From NCBI GenBank assembly GCA_017541885.1, contig JAFXYF010000005.1, positions 7,835 through 71,834 of the forward strand: a stretch of 64,000 nt of DNA. The letters are read 5' to 3'. This stretch comes from Bacilli bacterium (GTDB lineage: Bacteria > Bacillota_I > Bacilli_A > RF39 > UBA660). Numbering within the stretch: the stretch's first letter is position 1; each line of letters opens with the position of its first letter. A model generated the notes under the pieces. The model did not search any database, was not told where the DNA came from, and saw nothing but the letters and a program-made list of their open reading frames with translations. This document shows positions 29,785-58,504 of the stretch, one piece after another. Position numbers and translations under genes: made by a program.

Positions 29785-32004
29785 ATGATGAGAAGTTATG
29801 TTGATTTAGTTTTAAAAAAAGAGAAGAAAGCTATTTCTTTAGAATTGATTGTTTCTAAGATAGAACAATTAAGAAATAGTAAATTAACTGAAGAAGAGAT
29901 AAAAGAAGTATTAGATACATTAGAAGAAGATGTATCTAATTTAGATGTATTAAAAACTCCTACTAATGAATATATTTTGCTTACTAAAACGTCTTTTAGA
30001 AAAGGACGTTTTTATAGTGATAAAAATGGAGGAGTTGTTTCTGTTACTAACTCTTATATTGATAGAGATGGTAAATTAATTGTTAGTAGTGAAGAGTTTA
30101 ATGTAGATAAAGAATATACTTTTGGAGCAATTGATGGAGATTATGTATTAATTGATAGTTCTAGTGGTAATACTAAAGTTAGTAAAATACTTGATAGACA
30201 GTTAGAGTATATTGCTGGTGAAGTATATAGAACTGGTGAAAGTTATTTTGTTAGACCAGTTGACTCTAAAAAACAATTTCTTACTATTGCTTTAGAGGGA
30301 GAAGCTATTGAAGGGGAAAGAGTGGAAGTTGTTTTAAATAAACAGACTGCTCCTAATTTCTATCATGGAACTATTACTAAGGTTTTTAATCATAAGGATG
30401 ATCCTACTGAGGCAATTCTTTGGGAAGCTTTTAAGCATGGAGTAGATAATGAATTTAGTAGAGAAGCTTTAGAACAACTTGAACATATTCCTACTGAGGT
30501 TAGAGACTCTGATCGTATTGGTAGAGAAGATTTAACTCATTGGGAAGTATTTACTATTGATGGTAAGGATACTAAAGATATGGATGATGCGATTAGTCTT
30601 ACTATAAACGAAAGAGGTAATTATGTTTTAGGAGTTCATATTACTGATATAGCATCTATTGTACCTGAAGGATCTCCTCTTGATAGAGAAGCTTTTAGAA
30701 AAGGTAATAGTTTCTATTTAGGTGGTACCGTTCTTCCAATGTTTCCACATAAGATATCTAATGGTATTGGTTCATTAAATCCTTATGTAGACCGTATGAC
30801 TATTTCTTGTATTATGGAGATTTCTCCTGAAGGAGAGGTATTATCTCATAGAATTAGTCCTACTATTATTAGATCTAGAAAAAAGATGACTTATGAGAGT
30901 GTTAATAAATTATTAAAGAAAGGTGAAGTTGAAGAAGGATACGAAGAGTTTTCTGAAACTTTATTAAGAATGTATAAATTAAGTTTGATACTTAAAAAGA
31001 ATCGTATTTTAGATGGAGCAACTGACTTTAATAGAGGAGAATTAAAAGAGAAGAGAGATGAATCAGGTAAGATAATTGGATTTGGTAGTAGAATACAAGA
31101 TGCAGCAGAAAACTTAATAGAAGAATTTATGGTTTTAGCTAATCAAGAGGTAGATAAAGATTTAACTTCTAAGGGATTTCCTTTCTTACATAGAGTTCAT
31201 GGATATCCTAATGAAGCAAGACTTGAAAATCTATTAAGATTATTAGATGCAGTAGGATTACCTTTTGCGGAATACTCAGCAACTGATCTTGCTTATGATC
31301 ATAAAGCTTATCAAAAACTAATTAGTCATATTAATAGAAGTGGTCCATTAAGAGATGTGTTACTTACTGAAGCTATTAGATGTATGTCTAGAGCTAAATA
31401 TAGTCATGAATCTATTGGTCATTATGGATTAGCTAAGAGATATTATTGTCATTTTACTTCTCCTGTTAGAAGAGATGCTGATTTAACTGATCAAAGAATT
31501 ATATGGGATTTCTTATTTAAACGTGATAATATTGAAAAGAATGTCCATAAGTGGGCTAAAAAATTACCTGAGATTGCAGAGAGAACTTCTAAACAAGAGC
31601 GAATTGCGAATGATACAGAAAAAGATGTTTTAAAAATGATTTGCGCAGAATATATGGAAGAGCATGTTGGAGAAGAATTTGATGCGACTATAACTGAACT
31701 TTCTTCTAATGGTTTAGTTGTTCAACTAGATAACTTAATGGAAGGTAATGTACGTATGAGAGATTTAGGTGGACATTATGTTTATAGTGAGAAAAATTAT
31801 GCATTAATTTCTAAAGATGGAGAAGAACCTTACTTTTTAGGAGAAAGATTACATCTTATGTTAAAACATGCTTCTAGAGATGCGAAGAAAATAGATTTTT
31901 GTGTTATTGATAAAATATATGATAGTAATGTTAGATATCGAGAGGATATTTATAACGATGTAAAAATGAAAATGAAAAAGAGAAGAGCAAAAAGAAAAAA
32001 ATAA
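29785..32004 (+). CDS. RNase II/R-family (RNB domain) exoribonuclease, second paralog
   Basis: 739 aa. RNB motifs TIDGKDTKDMDDAIS and HFTSPVRRDADL, a C-terminal S1-like domain and a Lys-rich tail (KMKMKKRRAKRKK). Confidence 0.85.
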   Translation: MMRSYVDLVLKKEKKAISLELIVSKIEQLRNSKLTEEEIKEVLDTLEEDVSNLDVLKTPTNEYILLTKTSFRKGRFYSDKNGGVVSVTNSYIDRDGKLIVSSEEFNVDKEYTFGAIDGDYVLIDSSSGNTKVSKILDRQLEYIAGEVYRTGESYFVRPVDSKKQFLTIALEGEAIEGERVEVVLNKQTAPNFYHGTITKVFNHKDDPTEAILWEAFKHGVDNEFSREALEQLEHIPTEVRDSDRIGREDLTHWEVFTIDGKDTKDMDDAISLTINERGNYVLGVHITDIASIVPEGSPLDREAFRKGNSFYLGGTVLPMFPHKISNGIGSLNPYVDRMTISCIMEISPEGEVLSHRISPTIIRSRKKMTYESVNKLLKKGEVEEGYEEFSETLLRMYKLSLILKKNRILDGATDFNRGELKEKRDESGKIIGFGSRIQDAAENLIEEFMVLANQEVDKDLTSKGFPFLHRVHGYPNEARLENLLRLLDAVGLPFAEYSATDLAYDHKAYQKLISHINRSGPLRDVLLTEAIRCMSRAKYSHESIGHYGLAKRYYCHFTSPVRRDADLTDQRIIWDFLFKRDNIEKNVHKWAKKLPEIAERTSKQERIANDTEKDVLKMICAEYMEEHVGEEFDATITELSSNGLVVQLDNLMEGNVRMRDLGGHYVYSEKNYALISKDGEEPYFLGERLHLMLKHASRDAKKIDFCVIDKIYDSNVRYREDIYNDVKMKMKKRRAKRKK

Positions 32005-37137: not shown

Positions 37138-37150
37138 TTATGACTCTTTT
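37125..37150. terminator. bidirectional terminator between ctpA and the sortase gene
   Basis: Palindrome AAAAGAGTCA-TAATTA-TGACTCTTTT. Confidence 0.75.
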
Positions 37151-37671
37151 TCTATGGCATTTATAAGCAATTGACAATTATCTTTTTTAGGACAGCAAGT
37201 AGTAAGTACTAGTTGTCTTTTATTTTCTTTTACTCCAGAGATATAACCTGTTTTTGGTTGTTCTTCTATTTTATTAATTACATATTTATAATCATTATTT
37301 TGATATGTGATTATTACTTCATCTTTTAATTCTAATTCGTCTAATCTGTTAAAGAATGAAACATTACTTGTCCCTGAATGAGCAGCAATAAAAATAATAC
37401 TATTTTCTTCTTTTGGATCAATAGATTCTTTTAGAATAGTTATATTTTCTTCAATATTATTTTTATTACTTTCTATAGAATATAAATCTTTATTTAAAGC
37501 TATCTTTTCTATTACTATTTTTCCTATTGGTTTTTCTTCTATTATATTTTCTTTAAATACTTTATTAATATGAATAGTATTTATTTCTTCTTCTTTATCT
37601 ATTTTTAAGAGAGATAATGAAGAGAGTAGAGTTATTACTATTACTAGAATTCTAAAGGTATTTTTTAGCAT
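37138..37671 (-). CDS. small sortase-family transpeptidase (atypical)
   Basis: 177 aa with an N-terminal TM anchor, AAHSG (catalytic His region) and QLVLTTC (TLxTC-type Cys). No Arg occurs in the 18 residues after the Cys. The start overlaps the stop of the upstream adhesin gene. Confidence 0.7.
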   Translation of the reverse strand: MLKNTFRILVIVITLLSSLSLLKIDKEEEINTIHINKVFKENIIEEKPIGKIVIEKIALNKDLYSIESNKNNIEENITILKESIDPKEENSIIFIAAHSGTSNVSFFNRLDELELKDEVIITYQNNDYKYVINKIEEQPKTGYISGVKENKRQLVLTTCCPKKDNCQLLINAIEKES

Positions 37672-39068
37672 AATATAAACTCTAATATTTTTAATAGTAT
37701 TACTAGAATAGATTCTTTAGATGTATTTGGAACTGGTATTTTATAATCATATAATTCTATTGTTTCATTATTACTATCTGTAATACTTATATAAAATGGT
37801 TCTACTAATTGATATCCTTCTGTAGTATTCATTTGTTTAATAGTATATGATCCATAAGGTAATTTAAATGTTACTTTTCCTTCTTCATTAGTTATATCTT
37901 TTGTGAATAATTCTTCATCTTTTAAAACTTGAAATTCTATATTAGATTCTTTTTTATTATCATCATAATACTTTATTATTGTTAGTTCTTTTTCTATTAC
38001 TTTATTTGGAATATAGAATATAGATCCTTGATTATCTTCTGTAAATGAGAATGAATAGACTTCTTCATTTAATTCATAGCCTTCTCCTGATTTTATTTCT
38101 TTAATTGTGTAATTACCTAAAGGCATATTATGAAGAGAACCTGTACCATTAATTATTTCTATTTGATCATATTCTTCTCCATCTTTATCTATTTGGAATA
38201 CTGCGCCATCTAATACTCCTTCTCCACTTGGAATATAATCATTTGTATCTTCATCTATTTTGAAAATATCTAGATGGTTATCTATTACTCTTAATTTGAA
38301 TGATATTTCTTTGGGATCTAGATCACCTTGCATTATCATATTCTGACTATTATTAGATTGATAAATAATTGGTGGTGTACCATAAATTGTTTCTTGAATT
38401 CTATTTAGAGTAATATCATATTCTCCTTCTTCTAAATCTTGAACTATTATTTTACCATTTTCTAATTTTACTTCTTCATTACTTGTGATATAGAAGTTTA
38501 GAGTGTCTCCAATTTCTATTTCTTTTGTTTCTCCTTTTTGCATTTTTATTAATTCATTTTCAATAGGAATTTCATTATCATATGAATTAATAATATTATT
38601 TATTTCATTTATTCTAGAATCGTAGATACTTGTTTTTGATCCGTTAAGAGTATCTGTAAAATAATAGTCTCCTCCATTTGGATTAGATTCTCTCCAAATC
38701 ATTAATTGAGTTACGGCATACCAAATATTATCATTATGACCTTTATATTTGTAACCGAAGTGAGCAATTTTTTTTATTCTATTAATTTGTTTTTGAGTTA
38801 GATTTCTAGGAGTAGTAGTTGTTTGATATGTACTAGATTCATTAAAGAAAGTTAATGGTTCTATACAATATACTTCTTGACTTGTTCTTTGATTTCTAAA
38901 CTTTCTTGCTTTTTGATAGTATATAGTATTTGAACTATAGTCATATTTGTTCATATAAATATTATCTATATACTCGGCTTCATAAAACTTATAGTCTTCT
39001 GCGTATACATCATTTCCTACTATAAAAATTGTCATTGCGATTATTAAGAAAAGTATTACTTTTTTCAT
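37665..39068 (-). CDS. surface adhesin with a thioester (TQXA/TED) domain and two Cna-B/SpaA-type domains
   Basis: 467 aa. Signal peptide ending VYAED. Thioester motifs EVYCIEP (Cys) and AVTQLMIW (Gln). Two prealbumin-like repeats (GAVFQIDKDG...LGNYTIKEIKSGEGYEL and IEFQVLKDE...YGSYTIKQMNTTEGYQL). The C-terminus reads IPVPNTS followed by a hydrophobic tail. Confidence 0.75.
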   Translation of the reverse strand: MKKVILFLIIAMTIFIVGNDVYAEDYKFYEAEYIDNIYMNKYDYSSNTIYYQKARKFRNQRTSQEVYCIEPLTFFNESSTYQTTTTPRNLTQKQINRIKKIAHFGYKYKGHNDNIWYAVTQLMIWRESNPNGGDYYFTDTLNGSKTSIYDSRINEINNIINSYDNEIPIENELIKMQKGETKEIEIGDTLNFYITSNEEVKLENGKIIVQDLEEGEYDITLNRIQETIYGTPPIIYQSNNSQNMIMQGDLDPKEISFKLRVIDNHLDIFKIDEDTNDYIPSGEGVLDGAVFQIDKDGEEYDQIEIINGTGSLHNMPLGNYTIKEIKSGEGYELNEEVYSFSFTEDNQGSIFYIPNKVIEKELTIIKYYDDNKKESNIEFQVLKDEELFTKDITNEEGKVTFKLPYGSYTIKQMNTTEGYQLVEPFYISITDSNNETIELYDYKIPVPNTSKESILVILLKILEFILC

Positions 39069-46615: not shown

Positions 46616-49036
46616 ATGTATCCTCTTGGAAAACAATTCGAAGTAGATTATTCAAAAGCTAAGAGTGATAAGAAAGCGGTAATACAAGGACAAAGATTCC
46701 GTATTTCTATTATTAGTGAACGTATTGTTAGACTTGAATATTCTCCTAATGGACAATTCTTAGATAAACCAACACAACTGGTAAGAAGAAGAAATATCGG
46801 ACTACCAGATTTTTCTGTGCGTCAAGATGCTAATGTACTTGAGATTAGTACTAAGTATTTTGCTTTAAGTTATATAAAAGAACAGCCTTATATTGGAACT
46901 AAAGTAGATCCAATGAAGACTTTAAAGATTACATTATTATCAAGAGATAGAGATCGTAGAAAAGATTGGTATGTAGGACATCCTGAAGCTAGAAACTTAT
47001 TAGGTAATATGGTTAGTGTTGATGTTAATATTCCACCTAATCTACAAAAAGGACTATACTCTATTGATGGTTTTGCATCTATTGATGATAGTTATAGTAG
47101 AACTATTGAAGAAGATGGTACTTTAGGACCTGTAATGCAAAATCACTTTGATATGTATGTATTTATGTATGATAGAGATTTTAGACAGACATTATTTGAT
47201 TATTTCAAGATGACTGGTGCTCCTGCTTTAATTCCTAGATATGCATTAGGAAACTGGTGGAGTAGAAATACTCTATATAGTGATGATAGTCTACATGACT
47301 TGATTCGTCACTTTGAGAGAGATACAATTCCTATTTCAGTTATGTTATTTGATCATGATTGGCATATTAGAAATACTGAGACTGAAAAGAGATTAAAAGT
47401 AGGATATACATTTAATAATGAATTAATTAAAGATCCAAAAGCTATGATTGAAGAATTCCATAGAAGAGGTATTCGTGTTGGACTTGTAGTTAATCCTACT
47501 GGAGGTATATATCCTCATGAAATGTATTATCCACAAGCTAGTCAATATTTAGGTGTTACTGATGGATCTATTATTCCATTTGATCCATTAAATCCTAAAC
47601 ATATAGACGTATTATTTAAGATGTTCTTACACCCATTAGAGGCTCAAGGAGTTGACTTCTTCTGGAATGATTCTACTGGTAATATGGATGTTACTCAGTT
47701 ATGGGCATTAAATCATTATATGTACTTAGACTCTGGTCGTAATAGTAATGAAAGAGCTCTTATCTTAGGTAGAAGTGGAGTATTTGCTCCTCATAGATAT
47801 CCAGTACTATATGGAGGATCTTCTGAAGTTAGTTGGAAGGCATTAAAATCATTACCTTTCCAATACTTGAATGCTGCGAATATCGGAGTTTCTTGGTGGA
47901 GTCATGATGTTGGTGGTAACCATGGTGGAAGTGAAGATGGTGAACTTTATATTAGATATGTTCAATTAAGTACTTTTGGACCAATACTAAGATTCCATAG
48001 TGCTAGAGGAAGATATTATAAAAAGGAACCTTGGGTATGGGATGCTAAAACATTTAATATTGCAGCTCATTATTTAAGACTTAGACATAGATTAATACCT
48101 TATATTTATACTGAGGCATATAATTATACAAAGTCTGGTGTTCCTTTAATTCAACCATTCTATTATAATTACATGTGGGTTTATGATGATGATTTATATA
48201 GAAATCAATATTACTTTGGTTCACAATTATTAGTATGTCCAATACTAGAACCAAAAGATCCTATAATGAACCGTACAATTCATAGATTCTTTGTACCTGA
48301 TGGTATTTGGTATGACTGGGTTTCTGGTAAGAAGTTCCCAGGAAATAAGAAGTATGTAGCATTCTTTAAAGAGGATGATTATCCAGTATTTGCTCATGCA
48401 GGTAGTATTATTCCTATCTCTAACAGAAGTGACTATAATAATATTGGTTTACCTACTGATTTAGAGATTCAAATATTCCCTGGAGTAAGTAACACATATA
48501 CTTTATATGAAGATGATGGTACTACAGCATTATATCGTGAAGGATACTTCTTAAAGACATCAATTGACTATAACTACATGAGAGATAACTTTACTGTAAT
48601 TATAAGATCTGTTGATGGTAAGAGTGGTATTGCTCCTGAAAGACGTAATTATAAGATTGTATTTAGAAATACTAAAGCTGCTGAAAGTGTAGTAGCAGCA
48701 TTTAATAATCAAAAACTTGAATGTACTAATTATGTAGATGGTAATGACTTTGTAGTTGAAGTTAAAGCAGTTCCAACTATTGGACAATTAACTATTAACT
48801 GTAAGGGTAAAGATATTGAAATTGATGCAGTACGTTTAATTAATGATGAATTAGATAGTGTACTTATGGACTTAAAGATTGATACATATATGAAAGAAGA
48901 TATTGCGAAGATAATCTTCTCAGATACTACTGTTGATAAGAAGAGAATTGCTATTCGTAAGCTTAAGAAGACAGGTCTTTCTAAAGAACATATTGGATTA
49001 TTCTTGAAGTTACTTGATTACATGAATGATATTTAA
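46616..49036 (+). CDS. glycoside hydrolase family 31-like alpha-glycosidase
   Basis: About 806 aa. GVDFFWNDS and WWSHDVGG boxes and the overall layout (N-terminal beta domain, TIM barrel, C-terminal beta domains) resemble GH31. No signal peptide. Start at ATG 46616 after GAAGGTG. Confidence 0.75.
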   Translation: MYPLGKQFEVDYSKAKSDKKAVIQGQRFRISIISERIVRLEYSPNGQFLDKPTQLVRRRNIGLPDFSVRQDANVLEISTKYFALSYIKEQPYIGTKVDPMKTLKITLLSRDRDRRKDWYVGHPEARNLLGNMVSVDVNIPPNLQKGLYSIDGFASIDDSYSRTIEEDGTLGPVMQNHFDMYVFMYDRDFRQTLFDYFKMTGAPALIPRYALGNWWSRNTLYSDDSLHDLIRHFERDTIPISVMLFDHDWHIRNTETEKRLKVGYTFNNELIKDPKAMIEEFHRRGIRVGLVVNPTGGIYPHEMYYPQASQYLGVTDGSIIPFDPLNPKHIDVLFKMFLHPLEAQGVDFFWNDSTGNMDVTQLWALNHYMYLDSGRNSNERALILGRSGVFAPHRYPVLYGGSSEVSWKALKSLPFQYLNAANIGVSWWSHDVGGNHGGSEDGELYIRYVQLSTFGPILRFHSARGRYYKKEPWVWDAKTFNIAAHYLRLRHRLIPYIYTEAYNYTKSGVPLIQPFYYNYMWVYDDDLYRNQYYFGSQLLVCPILEPKDPIMNRTIHRFFVPDGIWYDWVSGKKFPGNKKYVAFFKEDDYPVFAHAGSIIPISNRSDYNNIGLPTDLEIQIFPGVSNTYTLYEDDGTTALYREGYFLKTSIDYNYMRDNFTVIIRSVDGKSGIAPERRNYKIVFRNTKAAESVVAAFNNQKLECTNYVDGNDFVVEVKAVPTIGQLTINCKGKDIEIDAVRLINDELDSVLMDLKIDTYMKEDIAKIIFSDTTVDKKRIAIRKLKKTGLSKEHIGLFLKLLDYMNDI

Positions 49037-49108
49037 AAAGAGATATTTAATATCTCTTTTTTTATTTAATAATATGTTATAATTTGTTTATAGTAGGAGA
49101 GTATAGTT
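49033..49108 (+). repeat. copy 1 of the duplicated terminator-promoter-RBS cassette
   Basis: Hairpin AAAAAGAGATA-TTTAA-TATCTCTTTTT (49035-49061), then TTAATAATATGTTATAAT (extended -10 TGTTATAAT) and AGGAG. It is nearly identical to 51619-51696. Confidence 0.85.
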
Positions 49109-51622
49109 ATGGAAGAAAAACAAAAGAGTTATATAAGACCAATTGTAATAGTTATGATCTTTGCATTTCTAACTATTGGCTATGCATATTTAACTTCGGT
49201 TCTTAATATTAATGGATCTACATTAATAAAGAATCCTACTTGGGATGTACATTTTGAAAATGTACAAGTTAAAGATGGTTCTGTTACTGGAGAACAAGTA
49301 ACACAAGAGCCAGAAATTGATACAAATAAAACTACTGTTAGTTTCCATGTTAATTTGAAGAAGCCTGGAGATTATTATGAATTTACTGTTGATGCAGTAA
49401 ACGCAGGAACAATAGATGCAATGATTAATACTTATTCTCATTTTGATTTAACTATTGATCAACTTAAGTATTTAGAAACTAGTGTCACATATGAAGACGG
49501 AGAAGAAATAGCTGAAAAGCAACAATTACTTGCAGGAGATTTTGCAATATATAAAATAGTTGTTTCGTTTAAGAAAGATTTAAGTGCAGAAGATTTACCT
49601 GATTCTCCAGAAGAATTAGATTTAGAGTTTACTGTTGAATATGTACAAAAGGATGATACTGCGATAGAGAGATTAGCTGAAACTAATTCTTTATACAATG
49701 TTTTAAAAAGAGAATATGATAATAACGGTTTAGCTAAACTATATAATGGTGCACATCAAGATAGTATGGATGCATCAAAATCTACTAAAAAAATTTATCA
49801 TTGGTATGCAAATAATAATACTGATGGTACTGCGGTAACTAACAAATTTAATGTTATATTTGCTAATCATTGTTGGCAAATGATAAGAACAACAGATACT
49901 GGTGGAGTGAAACTATTATATAATGGTGAAGCTGAAAATAATCAGTGCTTAGATACAAGAGGAACACATGTTGGAATTCATTCATATATTACTCAAAGCA
50001 TGTCTTCTGAGTATTGGTATGGGACAGATTATATTTATGATAAAACAACAAACAAATTTAAGATAGATGGTATAGTTGAAAAATCTGTATGGAATAGTAC
50101 AACAGGACCACAATTGGTAGGAAAATATACTTGTAAAAGTGTCGATGAAAATAATTTATGTGATACATTATATTTAATTATAAAGTATAATTCTTCAACT
50201 TATGCAGGTACTCTTATAATTGACTCAAACTCACATTATTCTCAATATGGTAGTTCGCAGTACAATTATTCATCATTTACTCCAGCTTATAATGGGTATA
50301 TGTATAATAATACATCTTACGAGATGAGAGAAATAATAACTTTAAAGACATACTCTTTTAGAACAAAAACAAATATTAACACTTCTTTTTGGTATGCTGA
50401 AGATTTTGATTGGAATAACGGGAACAGCACATATAGTTTAATTAATCCATTTCAAATAACTGATTTATCTGAAAGTGATAGTATTATTGGAAAATATACG
50501 TTTGGAAATACTAATCAAAATTTTACTTCAAGTAGCATCAAATATATTGTTGATGTAAAAGATGGTATGTATTACTATATTGAAGTTAAATCTGGTAATA
50601 GTTCGAGTGATTATAATTTAAGATTCATATATGGTGATTCTTTCTCTTATAATAACGATATATATACTATTAATAATTACACATCTTTTTATAGTTTTGA
50701 TTGGCCAAATGTATATGAAAATACTTTGAATAAATATATATGTCAGTTAGATAGTGGTAATTCTTGTAAGACACTATGGTATATAACTACTACAAGAGAA
50801 AACAATTTTGAATATGAAGTAGTATCAAATAATTATAAATTTAGTAATAGTTTTACATATGATGGAGAATATTATACTTTAGATAATGATTCTGTTATGG
50901 TTTGGGATTTTGCAAATAATGATGAACTTAATAAAATAAAAAATGCTCATTATACATGTTTTAATGAATCGGGCGTTTGTAAAAACATTAATTATGTATT
51001 TTACGGGTTACGAGGAAGTTCGAATGGAATTTGTTATGTAATTATAAAAAATGGTATGGATGTTGACTATGTTATTGATCAGATGTTTTATGTCGATGAT
51101 GTTAATACTTATGATTCTATTGCTAAATCTTCTGTAGATTCTTGGTATAATAAATACTTACTAAATTATTCTCAGTATTTGGAAGATATAATTTATTGTA
51201 ATAATAGAGATATTTCATCTTTAAGTGGATGGAATCCAAATGGTGGGAATATTGAATTTGATATGTATTTTGTAGCTTATTCTGATGATCTATATTGTAC
51301 AAATGAAACAGACAGGTTTAGTGTTTCTAATCCTAAAGCAAAATTAAACTATAAAACTGCATTGATTTCATCGAGAGATATGTTTTTATTGGGAAATGAT
51401 AAAATAAGAAGCAGTGGTCAAAGATATTGGGTAATGACTCCTAGAAGACTTGGAGGACAAAATGCTTACCATGGCCTTGTATCTTCCTCTGGTGATGCTG
51501 GGGATTTTAATACTATTTCTAGTGAAGCTGGTATTAGACCTACTATTTCTTTAAGACCTAGTACTATGTTTGAATCTGGTGATGGAAGTATGGCCAATCC
51601 TTATGTTGTTGATACTAATTAA
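49109..51622 (+). CDS. large signal-anchored surface protein, paralog A (TasA-like N-terminal domain, Tyr/Ser/Asn-rich Cys-pair repeats, conserved C-terminal domain)
   Basis: 837 aa. N-terminal anchor YIRPIVIVMIFAFLTIGYAYLTS. The first roughly 280 aa and the last roughly 170 aa are highly similar to the downstream paralog. The C-terminus reads GIRPTISL...GDGSMANPYVVDTN. Confidence 0.8.
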   Translation: MEEKQKSYIRPIVIVMIFAFLTIGYAYLTSVLNINGSTLIKNPTWDVHFENVQVKDGSVTGEQVTQEPEIDTNKTTVSFHVNLKKPGDYYEFTVDAVNAGTIDAMINTYSHFDLTIDQLKYLETSVTYEDGEEIAEKQQLLAGDFAIYKIVVSFKKDLSAEDLPDSPEELDLEFTVEYVQKDDTAIERLAETNSLYNVLKREYDNNGLAKLYNGAHQDSMDASKSTKKIYHWYANNNTDGTAVTNKFNVIFANHCWQMIRTTDTGGVKLLYNGEAENNQCLDTRGTHVGIHSYITQSMSSEYWYGTDYIYDKTTNKFKIDGIVEKSVWNSTTGPQLVGKYTCKSVDENNLCDTLYLIIKYNSSTYAGTLIIDSNSHYSQYGSSQYNYSSFTPAYNGYMYNNTSYEMREIITLKTYSFRTKTNINTSFWYAEDFDWNNGNSTYSLINPFQITDLSESDSIIGKYTFGNTNQNFTSSSIKYIVDVKDGMYYYIEVKSGNSSSDYNLRFIYGDSFSYNNDIYTINNYTSFYSFDWPNVYENTLNKYICQLDSGNSCKTLWYITTTRENNFEYEVVSNNYKFSNSFTYDGEYYTLDNDSVMVWDFANNDELNKIKNAHYTCFNESGVCKNINYVFYGLRGSSNGICYVIIKNGMDVDYVIDQMFYVDDVNTYDSIAKSSVDSWYNKYLLNYSQYLEDIIYCNNRDISSLSGWNPNGGNIEFDMYFVAYSDDLYCTNETDRFSVSNPKAKLNYKTALISSRDMFLLGNDKIRSSGQRYWVMTPRRLGGQNAYHGLVSSSGDAGDFNTISSEAGIRPTISLRPSTMFESGDGSMANPYVVDTN

Positions 51623-51696
51623 AAAGAGATATTTAATATCTCTTTTTTTTGTTTAATAATATGATATAATTTGTATAGAATAGGAGTGTGACCAAT
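51619..51696 (+). repeat. copy 2 of the duplicated terminator-promoter-RBS cassette
   Basis: The same hairpin occurs at 51621-51647, followed by TTAATAATATGATATAAT and AGGAG. Confidence 0.85.
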
Positions 51697-54201
51697 GTGG
51701 AACAAAAGTCTAAGACATATATAAGACCAATTGTTATTGTAATGATATTTGTGTTTATTACTATTGGTTATGCTTACCTTACTTCAGCTTTAAATATAAA
51801 TGGAGCTACACTACTAAAGAAACCTACTTGGGATGTACATTTTGAAAATGTACAAGTAAAAGATGGATCTGTAACAGGGGAACAGGTAATAGATGAACCT
51901 GAGATAGATTCAGAACAAACTACTGTAAGTTTCCATGTTAATTTGAAGAAGCCTGGAGACTATTATGAATTTACTGTTGATGCGGTAAATGCAGGAACTA
52001 TTGATGCGATGATTAATACTATTACTGATTTTGATTTAACAACTGATCAGTTAAAATACTTAGAAACAAGTGTTACTTATGAAGATGGAGAAGAAGTGCA
52101 GGCAAAACAACAGTTACTGGCAGGGGATACTGCAGTATATAAGATAAGAGTTGAGTATAAACTAGATCTTGATGCAGAAGATTTACCATCTAATCCAGAA
52201 CAGTTAGATTTGGAGTTTTCAGTTGAATATGTTCAAAAAGATGATACTGCGATAAGACGTAGAAGCGAAAAAGCTTTGTATAATGTCTTAAAGAAAGAAG
52301 CGGAAAGTGGTAGCGGTTATGCATTAAAATATACTGGTGCACATCAAGATAGTATGGATACTTCTTTATCAACAAAAGAAATATATCACTGGTATGCAAA
52401 TGATGAGAATGATGCGGGTATAATAAAAGATAAGTGGAATGTTATTTTTGCTAATCATTGTTGGCAAATGTTTAGAACAACAGATACTGGTGGTGTCAAA
52501 CTTATTTATAACGGAGAAGCTGAGAATGGTAAATGTTTGACTAACCGTTCAAACCATGTTGGATATGCAGCAACTTATATTCCTGAAACTCAAGAATTAT
52601 TGGATACATATTATTATGGAACAAGTTATTCATATGACTCTACAAGTAGTTTATTTAGCTTAGCAGGAGATATAACGACAGGTACAATAAGTGAAAAAAA
52701 GTATACTTGTCTAAGTTCTTCTTCTAATGGTACATGTTCAACTTTGTATTTAATTGATACTATTTCAAGCGATTCAACATATTATGTAATACCATTAAAA
52801 GGTAATTCTAATAGTCATTTCTATGGCTCTTTAAATTATAATGCTTTTGCTCAAGGTGAAGAATATTCTACCGGTTACATGTATAATGTTTCTAATTATG
52901 AAAGAGATCAAAAATCGATGACTTCATATACTAAGGTTTTTTATGATACTACTCTTTCTACATCTTATTACTATTCCGATTCATATGATTACAATGAAAC
53001 AGAAGCGAACAAATATACTTTAAGTAATCCTTATTTGATATCTAGTTCATCTGAATATTCAAGCTTAGTTGGTAAATATACGTTTAAAAGTACTACAAGT
53101 GATTCTTCTAGTAGTTCAATATATTATATTGCTGGTGTTAGTGGCTCAACTATGTATTATAAAGAATTAAAATATGGTCATGATTTATCTTATTACAATT
53201 TTACTATTACTTATGGAGATAGTTATACATCTAATGGAAATGGAACATATACAATTAACAATGCTTCAACAATAGATATATATAATTGGTATTCTAATTA
53301 TTCAAACTTTGGTAATAATAAATACTTTTGCAAAAATGCTTCATCAGGCAATAGATGTAGTTCATTGTATTACTCAACTGTGGTTATGGCTACGCACTAT
53401 TCTTATTCCAGTATGTCTAATACTTATAAGTATGCTAGTGGATTTACATATGATAGTACTACTTCTAAATATACATTAAACAACGATTCTGTTTCAATTT
53501 GGAAAGCATTAGATAGTGATAGTCTTGATAGTATTGGTGATCATCATTATACTTGTTGGAATTCAAGTGGTACTTGTAGTAAAATTGCATATATCTATCG
53601 GTTTGTTAATGGTGATGAATATTGGTATATTGAATTGGAAAATGGTAGAAGTATTGATGATTTTTTCAATGATTCTCTTTACGGAGATAATATTAATTCA
53701 AAATCTTCAACAATAAAAATTGGAATAGATGCATGGTATGCAAAATATATGAATTCATATAATAGTTTTATAGAGGACACTATTTTTTGTAATGATAGGA
53801 GCTTTAGTTCAGATAGTGGCTGGAATCCAAATGGTGGAAATATTAGAACTTCTGCTCTTCTGCATGGATCTAGTGGTTTGAGTTGTTCTAAGGTTACGGA
53901 TAGATTTAGTATTAATAATTCAAAAGCTCAGTTAACATATCCAGTAGGTTTAATTACTTATAATGAATTAAATTATTTAGGATATCGAAATGTTTGGTAT
54001 AATTATGGTAGCTTTTGGATAGGAACTCCAGCAGATATAAGTGGCATTTTTGATGCAACAGGTGGAAATAGGGTTGTTTTTGGTGTAGGTGGTAGTGTAA
54101 ATGCTTCTGGAGTTCGCCCGGTTATTTCTTTAATACCTTGGATTCAATATGAAAGCGGTGATGGAAGTATGGCTAATCCTTATGTTATTGATACTGATTA
54201 A
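51697..54201 (+). CDS. large signal-anchored surface protein, paralog B
   Basis: About 834 aa from GTG 51697, which lies 10 nt after AGGAG, similar to the 9-nt spacing in paralog A. The track start at GTG 51688 sits only 1 nt after the RBS. The architecture matches paralog A, and the C-terminus reads GVRPVISL...GDGSMANPYVIDTD. Confidence 0.8.
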   Translation: MEQKSKTYIRPIVIVMIFVFITIGYAYLTSALNINGATLLKKPTWDVHFENVQVKDGSVTGEQVIDEPEIDSEQTTVSFHVNLKKPGDYYEFTVDAVNAGTIDAMINTITDFDLTTDQLKYLETSVTYEDGEEVQAKQQLLAGDTAVYKIRVEYKLDLDAEDLPSNPEQLDLEFSVEYVQKDDTAIRRRSEKALYNVLKKEAESGSGYALKYTGAHQDSMDTSLSTKEIYHWYANDENDAGIIKDKWNVIFANHCWQMFRTTDTGGVKLIYNGEAENGKCLTNRSNHVGYAATYIPETQELLDTYYYGTSYSYDSTSSLFSLAGDITTGTISEKKYTCLSSSSNGTCSTLYLIDTISSDSTYYVIPLKGNSNSHFYGSLNYNAFAQGEEYSTGYMYNVSNYERDQKSMTSYTKVFYDTTLSTSYYYSDSYDYNETEANKYTLSNPYLISSSSEYSSLVGKYTFKSTTSDSSSSSIYYIAGVSGSTMYYKELKYGHDLSYYNFTITYGDSYTSNGNGTYTINNASTIDIYNWYSNYSNFGNNKYFCKNASSGNRCSSLYYSTVVMATHYSYSSMSNTYKYASGFTYDSTTSKYTLNNDSVSIWKALDSDSLDSIGDHHYTCWNSSGTCSKIAYIYRFVNGDEYWYIELENGRSIDDFFNDSLYGDNINSKSSTIKIGIDAWYAKYMNSYNSFIEDTIFCNDRSFSSDSGWNPNGGNIRTSALLHGSSGLSCSKVTDRFSINNSKAQLTYPVGLITYNELNYLGYRNVWYNYGSFWIGTPADISGIFDATGGNRVVFGVGGSVNASGVRPVISLIPWIQYESGDGSMANPYVIDTD

Positions 54202-54202
54202 A

Positions 54203-54230
54203 AGAACTAGAAATTTTTCTAGTTTTTTCT
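54203..54230 (+). terminator. rho-independent terminator after paralog B
   Basis: AACTAGAAA/TTTCTAGTT stem followed by a T-run. Confidence 0.7.
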
Positions 54231-54269
54231 TTTATTATTTAGAAATTGTGTTATAATACTTATATATTT

Positions 54270-54468
54270 TGTGTTGATGAAGAAGTATTAGTGATTTTGA
54301 TACTTGTAGAGAGTCTATGGTTGGTGAAAATAGATAGTTAGAAATCATGAACTTGTCTTTTGAACAAATTGGGTGATTCCGTTATCAATTATAAAGTGTA
54401 TAGTAAATAACTATGAATTAAGGTGGTACCGCGAGTAATTCGTCCTTAAATTTATAGTTATTTTTTTT
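54270..54468 (+). promoter_or_regulatory. T-box riboswitch leader (leucine specifier candidate)
   Basis: Stem I elements AGAGAG and GGTGAAAA are present. The candidate specifier is CTT followed by G at 54352-54355. The conserved T-box AATTAAGGTGGTACCGCG lies at 54416-54433. A terminator (AAATAACTAT...ATAGTTATTTTTTTT) overlaps it. A TTATAAT -10 box lies upstream at about 54251. Confidence 0.8.
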
Positions 54469-54477
54469 GGAGGAAAT

Positions 54478-54867
54478 ATGGATGAGTTAATATTATTTTT
54501 TCTTACATTTTTATTACTCTTTATGATTTATCAAATATTTTTAATTGGACCTTTGAAAGAAGAGAATCTTGAAAAGAGAAAGAATAAAAAGAAATCTGAT
54601 AAAGAATTATTAGAGATTAAATATTTAAAGAGTAAATATGATTTAGATTTTAATAAGATAAAAAGAAATCAATTATTACAATTATGTGCAATTACATCTA
54701 GTTTAGATATGGCTATTGCGGTTACAGTTGTCGCATTTATTAAGTCTTTCCTGTGGGAGATTGTAGTTGGATTTGTAGTAGTTGTTTCATTAATTTATAT
54801 TAGTTATTATTTGATTTATTTATTTTATAAAAAGAAGGGAATGGTAAAGAATGGAAAACATAAATAA
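54478..54867 (+). CDS. hypothetical small membrane protein co-transcribed with leuS
   Basis: 129 aa. An N-terminal TM helix, a Lys-rich loop and two C-terminal TM helices. GGAGG RBS. It overlaps the leuS start by 17 nt. Confidence 0.5.
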   Translation: MDELILFFLTFLLLFMIYQIFLIGPLKEENLEKRKNKKKSDKELLEIKYLKSKYDLDFNKIKRNQLLQLCAITSSLDMAIAVTVVAFIKSFLWEIVVGFVVVVSLIYISYYLIYLFYKKKGMVKNGKHK

Positions 54868-57262
54868 AATAGAAAAGAAATGGCAAGATTACTGGGATAA
54901 TCATGAAACATTTAAAAGTGAAACTGGAGGAGACAAGAAACCTTATTATATCTTAGTAGAGTTTCCTTATCCTTCTGGAGCAGGACTTCATGTTGGACAT
55001 GTTAGAAGTTATACTGCACAAGATGCGATTGCTCGTATGATGAGACTTCAAGGATATAACATTTTATATCCAATGGGTTGGGATGCTTTTGGTGCTCCTG
55101 CAGAGCAATATGCAATTAAGAATCATATTCATCCAAAAGAAGCAGTTAAAGAAAATATTAAGACTTTTAAGGGACAAATGAAATCACTTGGATTCTCATT
55201 TGATTGGAGTAGAGAGTTTTCTACAACTGATCCTGAATATTATAAATGGACTCAATGGCAATTCTTACAATTTTATAAACATGGAATGGCTTATAAAGAT
55301 ACTATTCCTGTTAACTGGTGTCCTACATGTAAAAGTGTTTTAAGTAATGAGGATGCAGCTGGAGGAGTATGTGAGAGATGTGGAAGTCAAGTTGAACAAA
55401 AAGAGAAGAGTCAATGGATGCTTAGAATGAGTGATTATTCAGAAGACTTATTAAAGGGACTTGATGATACAAACTTTGCTGATAGAGTTAAGTTAGGACA
55501 AATCAACTGGATTGGTAAGAGTGAAGGTGTAGAAGTAGATGTTGATATAGTAGGTGGAGGAAAGTTTAGTATATTTACTACTTGTCCTGAAACTATCTAT
55601 GGTATTACTTTCTTTGTTATTGCACCTGATGGAAAACTTATTAAAGAGTTAATGGATAGAGTTCTAAATAAAGATGAAGTAAATGCTTATATTAAAGAGA
55701 CTTCTATGAAGAGTGCAATGGATAGAACTGAACTTAATAAAGGTAAGACTGGAGTAGAAGTTAAAGGAATTAAAGCAATTAATCCTGTTAATGGTAAAGA
55801 AGTTCCAATATTCTTAGGAGACTTTGTATTAGGTGATTATGGTACTGGAGCAGTTATGGCAGTTCCATCACATGACCAAAGAGACTTTGAATATGCTAAG
55901 GAACATAATCTTGAAATTATTAAAGTAATTGATTGTGGTGATATAACAGAACATGCGATTGAAAAGACTGAATATATGGGTCATGAATATAAGATGATTA
56001 ATTCAGAAGAGTTTGATGGTATGACTGTTGATGAAGCTAGAGTTAAGATTGCTGATATGATTGAAGCTAAGGGCTTTGGTCGTAGAGTAAATAATTATAA
56101 GATGAGAGACTGGATTTTCTCAAGACAAAGATTCTGGGGAGAACCAATTCCAATGATTAACTGTCCTAAATGTGGATGGGTTCCAATGAATGAGGAAGAT
56201 TTACCATTATTACTTCCAGATGTAGCTGAATATGAACCTACTGAAGATGGAGAGTCTCCACTTGCAAATATTACTGACTGGGTTAACTGTAAGTGTCCTA
56301 AGTGTGGAGGAGATGCAAAGCGTGAGACTGATACAATGCCTAACTGGGCAGGATCTTCTTGGTACTTCTTAAGATTTATGGATCCACATAATGATAAAGA
56401 ATTTGCTTCAATGGACGCTATGAAATACTGGAATAGAGTAGATTGGTATAATGGTGGAATGGAACATACTGCAAGACACTTATTATATGCTAGATTCTGG
56501 GTACAATTCTTATATAATATTGGATTAGTTCCTCATAAAGAAATGATTTGGACAAGAGTTAGTCATGGTATGGTACTAGGATCTGATAATAGAAAGATGA
56601 GTAAATCTATTGGTAATGTTATTAATCCAGATGATATTGTTAAAGAATACGGAGCAGATACTCTTAGAGTATATGAAATGTTTATGGGAGATTATCAAAT
56701 GGATGCTCCTTGGAGTACTGAGTCTTTAAGAGGATGTAAGAGATTCTTAGATAAGATTGAAAGATTAAAAGATAAGATTAATGATAATAGTGGATATAGT
56801 GAAAAGCTTGAAGCACTTCAAAATAAGACTATTAAGAGAATTGAATATGATATGATGCACATGGGTTATAACACTGTTATTTCTTCATTAATGATCTTAG
56901 CAAATGCTTATGATGATATGGATTCTATTACTAAAGAAGATTATCGTTTAATCTTAACATTATTAAACCCAATTGCTCCTCATATTACTGAAGAATTAAA
57001 TGAATCTTTAGGATATAAACCTATTTGTGAGAGTGAATGGCCTACTTATGATGAAGAAAAGACTATTGAAAATACTAAAGATATAGCAGTACAAGTAAAT
57101 GGTAAAGTAAGAGGAACAATAACTATTTCAATTGATGATGATGATCAAACTATTCAAGAAAAAGCTCTTGAAAATGAGAATGTTCAAAAACATTTAGAGG
57201 GAAAAGAAATAGTAAAAGTTATTGTTATTAAGGGTAAAATTGTTAATATAGTTGTTAAATAG
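54851..57262 (+). CDS. leuS: leucyl-tRNA synthetase
   Basis: 803 aa with the class I motifs HVGH (GLHVGHVRSY) and KMSKS, and Zn-binding CPTC/CERCG and CPKCG elements. Confidence 0.97.
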   Translation: MENINKIEKKWQDYWDNHETFKSETGGDKKPYYILVEFPYPSGAGLHVGHVRSYTAQDAIARMMRLQGYNILYPMGWDAFGAPAEQYAIKNHIHPKEAVKENIKTFKGQMKSLGFSFDWSREFSTTDPEYYKWTQWQFLQFYKHGMAYKDTIPVNWCPTCKSVLSNEDAAGGVCERCGSQVEQKEKSQWMLRMSDYSEDLLKGLDDTNFADRVKLGQINWIGKSEGVEVDVDIVGGGKFSIFTTCPETIYGITFFVIAPDGKLIKELMDRVLNKDEVNAYIKETSMKSAMDRTELNKGKTGVEVKGIKAINPVNGKEVPIFLGDFVLGDYGTGAVMAVPSHDQRDFEYAKEHNLEIIKVIDCGDITEHAIEKTEYMGHEYKMINSEEFDGMTVDEARVKIADMIEAKGFGRRVNNYKMRDWIFSRQRFWGEPIPMINCPKCGWVPMNEEDLPLLLPDVAEYEPTEDGESPLANITDWVNCKCPKCGGDAKRETDTMPNWAGSSWYFLRFMDPHNDKEFASMDAMKYWNRVDWYNGGMEHTARHLLYARFWVQFLYNIGLVPHKEMIWTRVSHGMVLGSDNRKMSKSIGNVINPDDIVKEYGADTLRVYEMFMGDYQMDAPWSTESLRGCKRFLDKIERLKDKINDNSGYSEKLEALQNKTIKRIEYDMMHMGYNTVISSLMILANAYDDMDSITKEDYRLILTLLNPIAPHITEELNESLGYKPICESEWPTYDEEKTIENTKDIAVQVNGKVRGTITISIDDDDQTIQEKALENENVQKHLEGKEIVKVIVIKGKIVNIVVK

Positions 57263-57288: not shown

Positions 57289-57340
57289 ACTTTTTCCTTA
57301 CTTTATGGTATAATGTGCGTACTAATGGGGGTTGGTAGTT

Positions 57341-58504
57341 ATGTACATTAGAGAAGACGGAGTTATTATATCAGGACAATTCTTTTCAAAAGATTTATTT
57401 AAGTATTTATTAACACACTTTAAAGAGGCTTTCTCACATTCTAGTTTAACTATTGAGAAAGCATTTAAAGAACTAGATGATTTTGATTTAGCTTTAACTA
57501 ATAGTATGGATGATAAGTCTCATAAGTATTTTATGCTTTTAAACTATAAAGAAAAACGTGATGTTTTATATTTACTTCATCAAATTATTGTATATAGAGG
57601 ATCTAAATATGGAGTTTTTTCTGAACCATTAAAGGGTACTAAAAAACAAACTGAGGAGTTATATCAAAAATACTTTTCTTACTTTGATCCATATCTTTCT
57701 TATTACATAGTTTTTTCTAAAAAAGGAGTAGTTAATAAGAAAAAGACATTCCAAAAAGTTGGAGAATTGTTTGTTAATTTACCTCAAAAAGAAGCTGCTT
57801 ATAAGAAAGCTTATAATATGCAAAAAGATCATATGGATGCTTTTGATTATGCAGTGGAAAAAGAAAAGATTGGTCTTAGTGAGACTATTAGAATTAATGA
57901 AATTGTTAATAATAGTGATGAAGATACTATACCTGGATATAAGAAATTTAATAACTGTATTTTAGGTGCTAAATTTGATACTACTGATAGACTTGATGTT
58001 CCTTTTGAAATGCAAAACTTATATAATGATTATGATCATGATTTTGATCTAGAATTATTAGATCCTACTGAACCTGGAATTACAAATGAAGAACGTTATA
58101 ATAGAACTTGTGAGATATTTAAAAAAGAAGCTTTATTCCACATTCGTTTTATACGTATCCATCCATTTGGAGATGGTAATGGAAGAACTGGTAGAATTAT
58201 ATTAAATCAACATTTATTAAAACAGAAACTTGCACCGGTAATGATTTCTAATGTTATGAGTGATGATTATCGTAGATGTATTAATGAATTTGATGTTGAT
58301 GGACTTGCTAAACTATTTTTAATGAGTTCTTCATTACAACTTGCTAACTGGGTATCTATGAAGAAGTCTCATCCTACTATTCACAAAAAGGATTTAGCTA
58401 TTAAGAATAGTACTATGGCTCATCTTTTAGGATATTATGATAATGATATTTATAATAAAGAGAAGAAGAGTTTTTCTGAAATAGGTAGAACTTACTTATA
58501 TTAG
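57341..58504 (+). CDS. Fic-domain protein (putative AMPylase) with an uncharacterised N-terminal region
   Basis: The canonical Fic motif HPFGDGNGRTGR, matching HxFx(D/E)GNGRxxR, lies in the C-terminal third. The roughly 270-aa N-terminal part has no motif I recognise. Start at ATG 57341. Confidence 0.85.
   Translation: MYIREDGVIISGQFFSKDLFKYLLTHFKEAFSHSSLTIEKAFKELDDFDLALTNSMDDKSHKYFMLLNYKEKRDVLYLLHQIIVYRGSKYGVFSEPLKGTKKQTEELYQKYFSYFDPYLSYYIVFSKKGVVNKKKTFQKVGELFVNLPQKEAAYKKAYNMQKDHMDAFDYAVEKEKIGLSETIRINEIVNNSDEDTIPGYKKFNNCILGAKFDTTDRLDVPFEMQNLYNDYDHDFDLELLDPTEPGITNEERYNRTCEIFKKEALFHIRFIRIHPFGDGNGRTGRIILNQHLLKQKLAPVMISNVMSDDYRRCINEFDVDGLAKLFLMSSSLQLANWVSMKKSHPTIHKKDLAIKNSTMAHLLGYYDNDIYNKEKKSFSEIGRTYLY

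Follow-up and report, generated by a model that had tools for sequence, protein, structure and literature searches.

Do two adjacent genes that share their regulatory DNA and N-terminal coding region, and far less of what follows, record a recent tandem duplication, or are they old genes that have come to carry the same 5′ end? We addressed this question for two neighbouring genes (gene 1 and gene 2, abbreviated g1 and g2 together with their products) that encode proteins of about 835 amino acids (aa) on a 64,000-nucleotide (nt) stretch of contig JAFXYF010000005.1 from a Bacilli bacterium, referred to below as the window. A first description, made without database searches and called here the sequence-only reading, proposed diversifying selection or cassette exchange acting on a central exposed module. 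The explanation that we favour, with somewhat more confidence than doubt, is that g1 and g2, each transcribed separately, belong to a large and uncharacterised family whose proteins lie outside the cytoplasm and bind ligands at the cell surface, and that their 5′ module has been homogenised or swapped among the family genes of the lineage.

A repeated transcription unit with divergent bodies

A whole transcription unit (terminator hairpin, extended -10 promoter, ribosome-binding site and gene) does occur twice, as the sequence-only reading had it. The period is 2586 nt from hairpin to hairpin and 2588 nt from start codon to start codon. Each gene is preceded by an intergenic unit of about 70 nt, in the order upstream stop codon, hairpin, TGnTATAAT, AGGAG, whose two copies are ~91% identical.

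The encoded proteins diverge in steps. Residues 1–185 (N1) are 83% identical between g1 and g2, residues 186–290 (N2) 65%, residues 291–690 (the middle) 38–40% and residues 691–837 (the C-terminal region) 45–46%, for an overall identity of 52% with 33 gap positions in a BLASTP alignment, or 14 and 17 in a full-length MAFFT alignment. Identity steps down after residue 185 and again near residue 290, and only short motifs are conserved C-terminally. What had been described as a near-identical N-terminal region of about 280 residues is thus two regions, and of the proposed conserved-variable-conserved mosaic only the sharp N-terminal conservation stands: the whole remainder (186–837) has diverged, not a central cassette of 380 residues. 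The short C-terminal motifs quoted do stand out, but the region that holds them is barely better conserved than the middle, and the middle, said to have diverged almost beyond alignment, aligns without difficulty and with few gaps. Other particulars held up: every quoted peptide string is present in both proteins at matching positions, DNA differences fall mostly at third codon positions (56% of the differences in residues 1–185), and the middle is rich in Tyr, Ser, Asn and Thr (45% in g1, 52% in g2 and ~20% in the housekeeping proteins encoded nearby).

The ratio of nonsynonymous to synonymous substitution rates (dN/dS, Nei-Gojobori) is ~0.2 in residues 1–285 and ~0.5 beyond, and nonsynonymous divergence is 3–4 times higher past residue 290. 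All 40-codon sliding windows lie below 1 except two (1.06 and 1.20), which fall within residues 768–826, near the C-terminal loop. Sliding dN/dS is of limited use here because synonymous differences are near saturation along the genes (pS 0.4–0.8), and these two windows were not counted as evidence of selection. With ratios of ~0.5 across the middle and C-terminal regions and a saturated dS, the diversifying selection that had been proposed is not demonstrated.

Phylogenetic incongruence and probable exchange of the 5′ module

Neighbour-joining trees with 100 bootstraps were built separately for N1, N2, the middle, the C-terminal region and the core (residues 186–837). N1 places g1 and g2 in a clade with the relatives P0002, P0003, P0004 and P0006 in 100/100 bootstraps; of the trees for N2, the middle, the C-terminal region and the core, none recovers this six-protein clade (0/100 bootstraps), and in no region do g1 and g2 pair as sisters in more than 2/100. 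The N1 segments of g1 and g2 are 76–92% identical to those of the four relatives and ~46% identical to those of the remaining family. Next to this, N2 of g1 is 81–83% identical to that of P0009, P0010 and P0043 (distance d = 0.20–0.23, P0010 being nearest at d = 0.20) versus 65% to g2, and for N2 of g2 the distance to P0012 (d = 0.34) is smaller than that to g1 (~0.47). No single tree with unequal rates fits this pattern of nearest relatives, and recombination is therefore required. Further along, the middle of g1 is 38% identical to g2 and 33–42% identical to any family member, and in the middle and the C-terminal region alike g2 resembles g1 no more than the other members do.

Comparable mosaics recur among the relatives. 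P0004 and P0006, each of which immediately follows a pyruvate kinase gene (~85% identity between the gene fragments), share 91% of their residues in N1, 56% in N2, 35% in the middle and 43% in the C-terminal region. P0002 is preceded by the promoter module of g2 and followed by the exact g2 terminator, with a core only 43–52% identical to that of g2, and the gene upstream of it is 31–39% identical to g1; positional orthology of P0002 and g2 is plausible, not proven, because these flanks belong to the repeated module. An unrelated genome (locus L007) has three tandem family copies in a different neighbourhood. Copies b and c there have identical upstream DNA, with 98% identity in N1, 50% in the middle and 42% in the C-terminal region, and copies a and b show the reverse mosaic (N1 40%, residues 240–360 80–90%, C-terminal region 65–77%). 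Taken together, these mosaics make segmental exchange among paralogues, and homogenisation of the 5′ end in particular, a property of the family.

To judge from these comparisons, g1 and g2 would be not a recent duplicate pair but old paralogues from residue 186 onward. We conclude that a 5′ module comprising terminator, promoter, ribosome-binding site, anchor helix and N1 has, in all likelihood, been homogenised or swapped onto them; for the mechanism we infer recombination or gene conversion, and the direction of exchange is equally presumptive. The cassette exchange suggested by the sequence-only reading thus gains backing from the incongruence between residues 1–185 and the rest, with the correction that the unit exchanged is the 5′ module.

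The last 45 nt of g1 (51578–51622) and g2 (54157–54201), which encode SGDGSMANPYV.DT and the stop codon, are 93% identical, and the DNA ahead of them is only ~50–60% identical over several hundred nt; the homogenised tract may therefore start inside the 3′ end of the upstream gene. At the P0002 locus (L089), the family gene upstream of P0002 (positions 1–980) is broken by a frameshift or assembly error into two open reading frames (ORFs), 183 and 130 aa long. The terminator there (~1000–1030) carries a compensatory pair change, GAGATAA/TTATCTC versus GAGATAT/ATATCTC in the window, which preserves the hairpin.

The N-terminal module N1

A phmmer search with residues 1–185 against 1.84 billion cluster representatives returned 3756 proteins at E ≤ 1e-3 and 2093 at E ≤ 1e-10, and N1 is present in more than 3700 clusters at 50% identity. 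The match always covers residues 1 to ~185 of the target, whatever the target length (190–1594 aa), and identity at the extreme N-terminus is 45–55% across otherwise unrelated proteins. Payloads behind N1 include BspA-type leucine-rich repeats (LRRs) and DUF285 with Listeria-Bacteroides repeats (P0181 and P0169 bear N1). Conversely, relatives with VWA domains share the 186–837 core, and the surface proteins P0085 and P0120 are fused to a core of the g1/g2 type. Proteins consisting of N1 only (~190 aa) exist, as does one with three N1 copies. A second N1-bearing gene lies within the P0004 locus itself (L088, 3091–4134): the gene after P0004 encodes a 347-aa protein with a terminator and promoter of the same type and N1 on a different payload, a short, Cys-rich and unrelated C-terminal part.

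N1, a helix followed by a sandwich of 140 aa, has a conserved signature, GYAxLxxxLxIxG...WDVHFxNV...PGDYYEFTVDAVNxGTIDAM, in which GYAxLxxxLxIxG directly follows the N-terminal helix. No Pfam model describes it. Sub-threshold matches are to fn3, DUF11 and Peptidase_M73. N1 of g1 scores 13 bits (E = 0.12) against fn3 (PF00041), below the Pfam gathering threshold of 25 bits, and weak fn3 matches in 9 of 20 N1 sequences (best E = 0.0027) amount to resemblance, not membership. A search of PDB sequences with the N1 profile turned up the LxPGxxYxFxVxAxN motif of titin and FN3con and nothing else; TasA was not found. Sub-threshold matches to Peptidase_M73 (camelysin)/WxLIP_PGBD occur in P0122, at 20.2 bits against a cut-off of 22.5, and in 2 of 20 N1 sequences. 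The SipW-type signal and TasA models of NCBIfam and Pfam do not match the N-termini of g1 and g2, and a SipW/TasA-type signal, an idea prompted by GTFAYFSD-like motifs, was set aside as unsupported by these models.

By its position and its payloads, N1 is a widespread putative anchor or display module at the N-terminus of extracellular, adhesin-type proteins. The best indirect evidence for reading g1 and g2 as surface proteins is that N1 fronts payloads of this type.

Protein architecture and predicted surface location

An AlphaFold2 model of g1, built on a 74-sequence alignment, is confident (predicted local distance difference test (pLDDT) 89.9; predicted template modelling score (pTM) 0.81). 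It consists of a helix (residues 11–29), a low-confidence linker (30–45), a beta-sandwich (47–180), a long mainly-beta region and a helix-plus-sheet C-terminal domain. A profile self-comparison with hhalign gave off-diagonal matches at E = 2.8e-18, 3.2e-10 and 1.7e-4, which reveal four internal repeats in the mainly-beta region, three of them with an invariant Cys pair (342/351, 545/553 and 617/624). The middle is no free-form variable region; it consists of four repeats on a scaffold of conserved Cys, Tyr and Gly residues.

Ten cysteines are invariant in the family and pair by spacing as 255/280, 342/351, 545/553, 617/624 and 697/730. Paired-cysteine spacing of this kind is typical of extracytoplasmic disulfides, and the repeats are probably disulfide-stabilised. 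Family-invariant polar residues in N2 and the C-terminal part are H216, D218, R260, D263, R284, K673, R700 and D735. In g1 and g2 the sole hydrophobic segment lies at the N-terminus and is preceded by K/R residues, which argues for an N-in, C-out orientation or for export. We found no lipobox (the first Cys of g1 and g2 is at residue 255), no LPXTG-like motif with a C-terminal hydrophobic tail by regular-expression search (both proteins end ...ANPYV[VI]DT[ND]) and no prepilin motif (G/(F,M)xxxE): neither MEEKQKSYIRPIVIVMIF... nor MEQKSKTYIRPIVIVMIF..., with which the proteins begin, has the Gly-Phe junction or Glu at +5. Overall, the N-terminal helix, the ten cysteines and the surface or adhesin payloads of relatives indicate that g1 and g2 are very probably extracytoplasmic, in keeping with the earlier description of them as surface proteins; ligand binding at the surface, as adhesins or lectin-like receptors, would fit this architecture.

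Structure prediction was among the checks first suggested, and the confident g1 model has no significant Foldseek neighbour. Weak Foldseek matches to Tc/Rhs toxin (probability 0.03) and to VP26/VP28 of white spot syndrome virus (WSSV; helix plus sandwich) were rejected as architectural coincidence.

The C-terminal domain and DUF6273

The C-terminal domain (residues 648–837; model pLDDT 90.4) bears a distant resemblance to DUF6273 (PF19789), the only recurrent Pfam match of the family. Ten of 57 members match the C-terminal half of the model at E ≤ 0.01, through their C-terminal 60–90 residues (YW..SP ... GVRP..L). Only P0057 (29 bits) passes the gathering threshold of 23.5 bits; P0002 and P0032 reach 22.6 bits. 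The 20-aa window with the lowest conservation in the family alignment (783–802, value 0.17) has the conserved YW..TP motif on one side and G(I/V)RP.ISL on the other, and it immediately precedes the last conserved strand. Published work on phage receptor-binding "tentaclins" describes DUF6273 as a domain of C-type-lectin-like character that binds ligands and carries the variable region of diversity-generating retroelements (DGRs) (PMC10743442), and DUF6273 is also annotated as the N-terminal domain of an immunoglobulin A (IgA) protease of the gut bacterium Thomasclavelia ramosa (PMC12402451). The C-terminal domains of g1 and g2 are possibly lectin-like.

Locus anatomy

The positions of the two transcription units and of the segments of g1 are given in Table 1. 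The ORF listing starts g2 at GTG 51688, for a product of 837 aa. GTG 51697 (834 aa) would be the better start, because GTG 51688 abuts the Shine-Dalgarno sequence AGGAG at 51682–51686, because MEQKSKTYIRP then aligns with MEEKQKSYIRP of g1, and because independent gene callers on at least 20 public contigs use the 834-aa product.

Table 1 Features of the g1/g2 locus (positions in the window).
Feature	Position	Strand	Remarks
Gene 1 (g1)	49109..51622	+	837 aa; from ORF listing; identical to "hypothetical protein" IKQ06_01755 of a Bacilli bacterium metagenome-assembled genome (MAG) at NCBI
Gene 2 (g2)	51697..54201	+	834 aa from GTG 51697; identical to NCBI IKQ06_01760; architecture like g1
Intrinsic terminator 1	49035..49066	+	12-bp stem, 3-nt loop, T-tract; directly 3′ of GH31 stop codon; opens repeated unit; -10.2 kcal/mol, z = -4.32 versus shuffles
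Intrinsic terminator 2	51621..51653	+	stem-loop identical to terminator 1; -10.2 kcal/mol, z = -4.66
Terminator 3	54201..54234	+	different hairpin, closes the array; -10.7 kcal/mol, z = -3.14
g1 extended -10 promoter element	49075..49083	+	TGTTATAAT; putative function
g2 extended -10 promoter element	51662..51670	+	TGATATAAT; putative function
g1 ribosome-binding site	49095..49099	+	AGGAG, 9 nt before ATG
g2 ribosome-binding site	51682..51686	+	AGGAG, 10 nt before GTG 51697
g1 N1 module, residues 1–185	49109..49663	+	short basic tail, helix 11–29, linker 30–45, sandwich 47–180 resembling fibronectin type III (FN3) or immunoglobulin (Ig) domains
g1 N2, residues 186–290	49664..49978	+	best-conserved segment family-wide (NVIFANHCWQMIRTTDTGG..., invariant C255 and C280)
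g1 four internal beta-rich repeats	49979..51058	+	start near residues 294, 418, 502 and 571
g1 C-terminal globular domain, residues 648–837	51050..51619	+	distantly DUF6273-like (YW..TP ... G[IV]RP.ISL), then SGDGSMANPYV tail
Most variable family segment, residues ~781–807	51449..51529	+	inside the C-terminal domain

The hairpin of terminators 1 and 2 reads AAAAAGAGATAT-TTA-ATATCTCTTTTT and is followed by the T-tract; the sequence of terminator 3 is also found 3′ of P0002 in another organism. A consensus terminator scanner did not list these terminators because its demand for three G-C pairs suits a genome of 29% G+C poorly. The TGnTATAAT element occurs at equal offset upstream of g1, g2, P0002, P0004 and P0006. 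Its conservation in six loci suggests that g1 and g2 are each transcribed separately from an extended -10 promoter. The promoter module is an unspecific pattern on its own: 12 of 13 matches in a scan of JGI metagenomes were unrelated AT-rich promoters and one was a further family member.

Family size and distribution

The family has at least 1414 homologues of g1 and g2, all unnamed or "hypothetical". In GTDB species representatives, 244 loci were confirmed by tblastn, with several copies per genome (e.g., at least seven in RGIG5090). All of these genomes are MAGs, and the guts sampled were those of ruminants or humans (Hadza, Nepal); carriers of the family are labelled Bacilli, Erysipelotrichaceae, Tenericutes or Mycoplasma. 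Ruminant gut metagenomes contain g1 and g2 on more than 20 contigs. The host carries genes for peptidoglycan (VanY, FemAB, MurJ-like; FtsW in relatives) and is therefore wall-bearing.

Full-length g1 and g2 gave no meaningful match in Pfam, NCBIfam or PHROGs, and matches to DUF7574 and to a histidine utilization repressor in the family scans were dismissed as noise. Searches of PDB sequences with the family profile, P0057 and the N1 profile found nothing past the FN3-like motif. The sequence-only reading had not recognised the family, and no characterised family matches g1 or g2 in Pfam, NCBIfam, PDB sequences or Foldseek searches: both the core family of at least 1414 homologues and the N1 module are without a Pfam model or structural neighbour.

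Strain variation and switching

A comparison of middle-region alleles across strains had been proposed. The 5.2-kb region proved clonal, with 0–7 single-nucleotide polymorphisms (SNPs) per 5207 nt in 16 contigs from different samples. The T-tracts are 7 and 8 T long in all 16; neither phase variation by homopolymer slippage nor strain-level allelic variation was seen among these contigs, although consensus assemblies could hide minority variants. No recombinase or invertible element adjoins g1 and g2 among the neighbours (VanY, a zinc-ribbon protein, GH31, T-box/leuS and Fic). The 64-kb window holds no template-repeat-like copy of the C-terminal coding regions of g1 and g2, only the conserved motifs of the paralogue, and INPHARED, PHROGs and IMG/VR contain no phage relatives.

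Competing explanations

If the explanation set out at the start is right, the N-terminal hydrophobic helix probably holds each protein at the membrane or exports it through the membrane. Outside the cell would follow, in order, an FN3/Ig-like stalk (N1), the conserved N2, the four beta-rich repeats and a distal DUF6273-like domain whose variable, exposed loop is a candidate ligand-contact surface. The paralogues would supply different specificities, and recombination in the conserved 5′ module, occasionally elsewhere, would reshuffle bodies while the regulatory and anchor cassette stays uniform in each lineage. Several observations weigh against parts of this explanation. The middle and C-terminal trees are nearly star-like, with distances of 0.8–1.0, and the non-sisterhood of g1 and g2 in them could come partly from saturation, so that the decisive incongruence is that between N1 and N2. 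Synonymous divergence of g1 and g2 within N1 is already high (dS ~0.6–1.0), and any conversion event must therefore be old. If the conserved G24-Y-A26 that follows the helix serves as a signal-peptidase site, as it may, the proteins would be released, not membrane-anchored. The full g1 model has no significant Foldseek neighbour in PDB or BFVD, and annotation supports neither a localisation nor a ligand for g1 or g2. The locus anatomy, the size of the family, the repeats and the incongruence are established here; surface exposure, ligand binding and the role of the loop are what we infer. Neither g1, g2 nor their isolated C-terminal domains match DUF6273, even at E ≤ 10, and Foldseek finds no C-type lectin or other significant PDB neighbour for the C-terminal domain (best E = 2.6). 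Since the DUF6273 similarity is partial and a Foldseek neighbour is lacking, the lectin-like fold is a lead, not a result.

A recent tandem duplication, followed by accelerated and positively selected divergence of a central exposed module between conserved ends, would explain why the units are adjacent, collinear and of equal length with near-identical regulatory DNA. It would also accommodate the 3–4-fold rise in nonsynonymous divergence past residue 290 and the two near-C-terminal codon windows at 1.06 and 1.20. We nevertheless consider it distinctly improbable: sisterhood of g1 and g2 is recovered in at most 2/100 bootstraps in N2, the middle, the C-terminal region and the core, each is closer in N2 to proteins of other organisms, and the middle of g1 is no more similar to g2 (38%) than to any other member (33–42%). 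Nor is the C-terminal region (45–46%) better conserved than the middle, which is a scaffolded four-fold repeat with dN/dS of ~0.5, not above 1. The N1 data invite another explanation, namely that N1 is a dedicated sorting or assembly module that is cleaved at G-Y-A and polymerises (as TasA/camelysin-type or donor-strand fibres) or docks to a lineage-specific partner in wall or membrane, its uniformity within a genome arising through co-evolution with that partner. Its 45–55% identity on thousands of unrelated proteins, N1-only and three-N1 proteins included, the GYAxLxxxLxIxG motif right after the helix, the lineage-specificity of N1 types and the sub-threshold Peptidase_M73/WxLIP_PGBD matches (P0122 and 2 of 20 N1 sequences) all point this way. 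We regard it as unlikely, as g1 and g2 match no SipW-type signal or TasA model in NCBIfam or Pfam, the N1 profile retrieves an FN3-like motif and not TasA from PDB sequences, Foldseek gives no significant match to a pilus or cannula subunit (E ≥ 0.15), and genomic contexts differ, with no partner gene conserved beside family members.

The gene immediately upstream on the same strand encodes a GH31 glycosidase, and together with the many invariant polar residues of N2 and the C-terminal part this could make g1 and g2 enzymes, or accessories of enzymes, for glycan breakdown. That is very unlikely given the strong terminator between GH31 and g1, the different neighbourhoods in other genomes (FtsW/metallophosphatase, ABC transporter or pyruvate kinase) and the failure to match any catalytic family in Pfam, NCBIfam or PDB; the terminator and the non-conserved neighbourhoods also led us to reject an operon that would join GH31 to g1 and g2. 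We see almost no chance that the proteins are phage-derived receptor-binding proteins or DGR targets mutated in the DUF6273-like domain. DUF6273 domains are DGR targets in phage tentaclins (PMC10743442) and the most variable family segment sits where such variable regions do, but the window lacks a template-repeat-like copy of the C-terminal coding regions, phage genomes, PHROGs and IMG/VR contigs yielded no matches, the locus is near-invariant in 16 contigs from different samples, and its neighbours are housekeeping genes. A more ambitious joint claim is tentative and in our judgement probably too strong: that N1 is an undescribed, dedicated surface-display or sorting module of uncultured gut Bacilli, carried by thousands of payloads and kept uniform within lineages by recombination and by co-evolution with a cognate partner, and that g1 and g2 represent, in their 650-aa core, a new fold family of lectin-like adhesins whose specificity is diversified by paralogue shuffling, not by DGR mutagenesis.

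Other features of the window

Downstream of the array, a T-box leader (54265–54450; Rfam, 106.8 bits) precedes an ORF for a predicted membrane protein of 129 aa (54478–54867), which overlaps the start of leuS (54851–57262) by 17 nt in an arrangement kept in all contigs of the species. The small membrane protein would therefore be co-transcribed with leucyl-tRNA synthetase under T-box control. A Fic-domain protein (57332–58504, +) is encoded directly downstream of leuS, followed in related contigs by a small Spore_Cse60-like ORF. One contig of the same species (L002, 15743–18153) is otherwise identical in this region, but leuS is called there as ORFs of 266 and 536 aa, which suggests a frameshift or assembly error.

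A protein with a thioester domain (TED) and SpaA fold, a conventional type of Gram-positive adhesin, is encoded at 37665–39068 (-), adjoining a 177-aa ORF with a sortase-like LVLTTC motif (37138–37671, -); sortase-type surface display is thus available to the organism as well, but g1 and g2 make no use of it. Elsewhere in the window are a gene for a 1528-aa protein with two FtsK/SpoIIIE ATPase stretches and the look of an EssC-type type VII secretion ATPase (11392–15978, +), a transfer-messenger RNA (tmRNA) gene with tag peptide ATKLKNAIANMFGTRQAVAFA (24245–24626, +), and two genes of the RNB family (RNase R/II-like) within 10 kb of each other (20417–22525 and 29785–32004).

Significance and comparison with known systems

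The carriers of this family are abundant in ruminant and human guts, uncultured and essentially unstudied at the cell surface. At least 1400 core proteins and more than 3700 N1 clusters without a Pfam model make up a sizeable annotation blind spot. If these proteins are the main adhesins or receptors of their hosts, they would be obvious handles for attachment to host or particles, for phage receptors and for immune recognition. Moreover, the shared "plug-in" 5′ module would be a clear natural example of concerted evolution, in which a regulatory-plus-anchor cassette is kept on anciently diverged bodies.

The closest parallels are the vsp (M. bovis), vlp (M. hyorhinis) and vpma (M. agalactiae) clusters of Mycoplasma, tandem paralogous surface-protein genes in small-genome relatives of the Bacilli. 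There, a conserved block of 5′ non-coding and N-terminal coding sequence is joined to divergent bodies, and recombination between paralogues produces mosaics. Defining traits of these clusters are a lipoprotein signal and switching devices, either a site-specific recombinase with inverted sites or a homopolymer tract of variable length in the promoter. The g1/g2 pair resembles them in its ~91% identical intergenic DNA and its 83% identity in N1 against 38–46% over residues 291–837, as does L007. It differs in having no lipoprotein signal, adjacent recombinase, invertible element or T-tract length variation, in showing no on/off or strain-level variation in 16 contigs, and in bodies predicted to be folded, Cys-scaffolded domains, not low-complexity repeats.

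Like the sortase-anchored adhesins (MSCRAMM, SpaA and thioester-domain proteins), g1 and g2 are large, multi-domain, beta-rich and presumably extracellular, but they lack an LPXTG-like motif and a C-terminal hydrophobic tail, their only hydrophobic segment being N-terminal. They share N1 or the core with some of the BspA-type LRR, DUF285 and VWA surface proteins of gut Firmicutes and relatives of the Mollicutes, which are multi-copy and presumed adhesins; unlike them, the g1/g2 core (186–837) has no LRR, DUF285 or VWA domain. DUF6273 proteins offer a further likeness in the hypervariable segment before the last conserved strand and in a context of extracellular ligand recognition (PMC10743442, PMC12402451). 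However, g1 and g2 have no reportable DUF6273 score, only the C-terminal half of the model is matched in 10 of 57 relatives, and, unlike in the Mtd-like and tentaclin targets of DGRs, variation lies between paralogues and is not somatic, with no template repeat in the 64-kb window. Families of paralogous surface proteins whose genes keep a conserved 5′ end are a kind of system already well known from Mollicutes and other bacteria, and g1 and g2 do not found a new category; what is new here is a surface-protein family, large and unannotated, whose core looks novel, together with an N-terminal module that is widespread and likewise unannotated.

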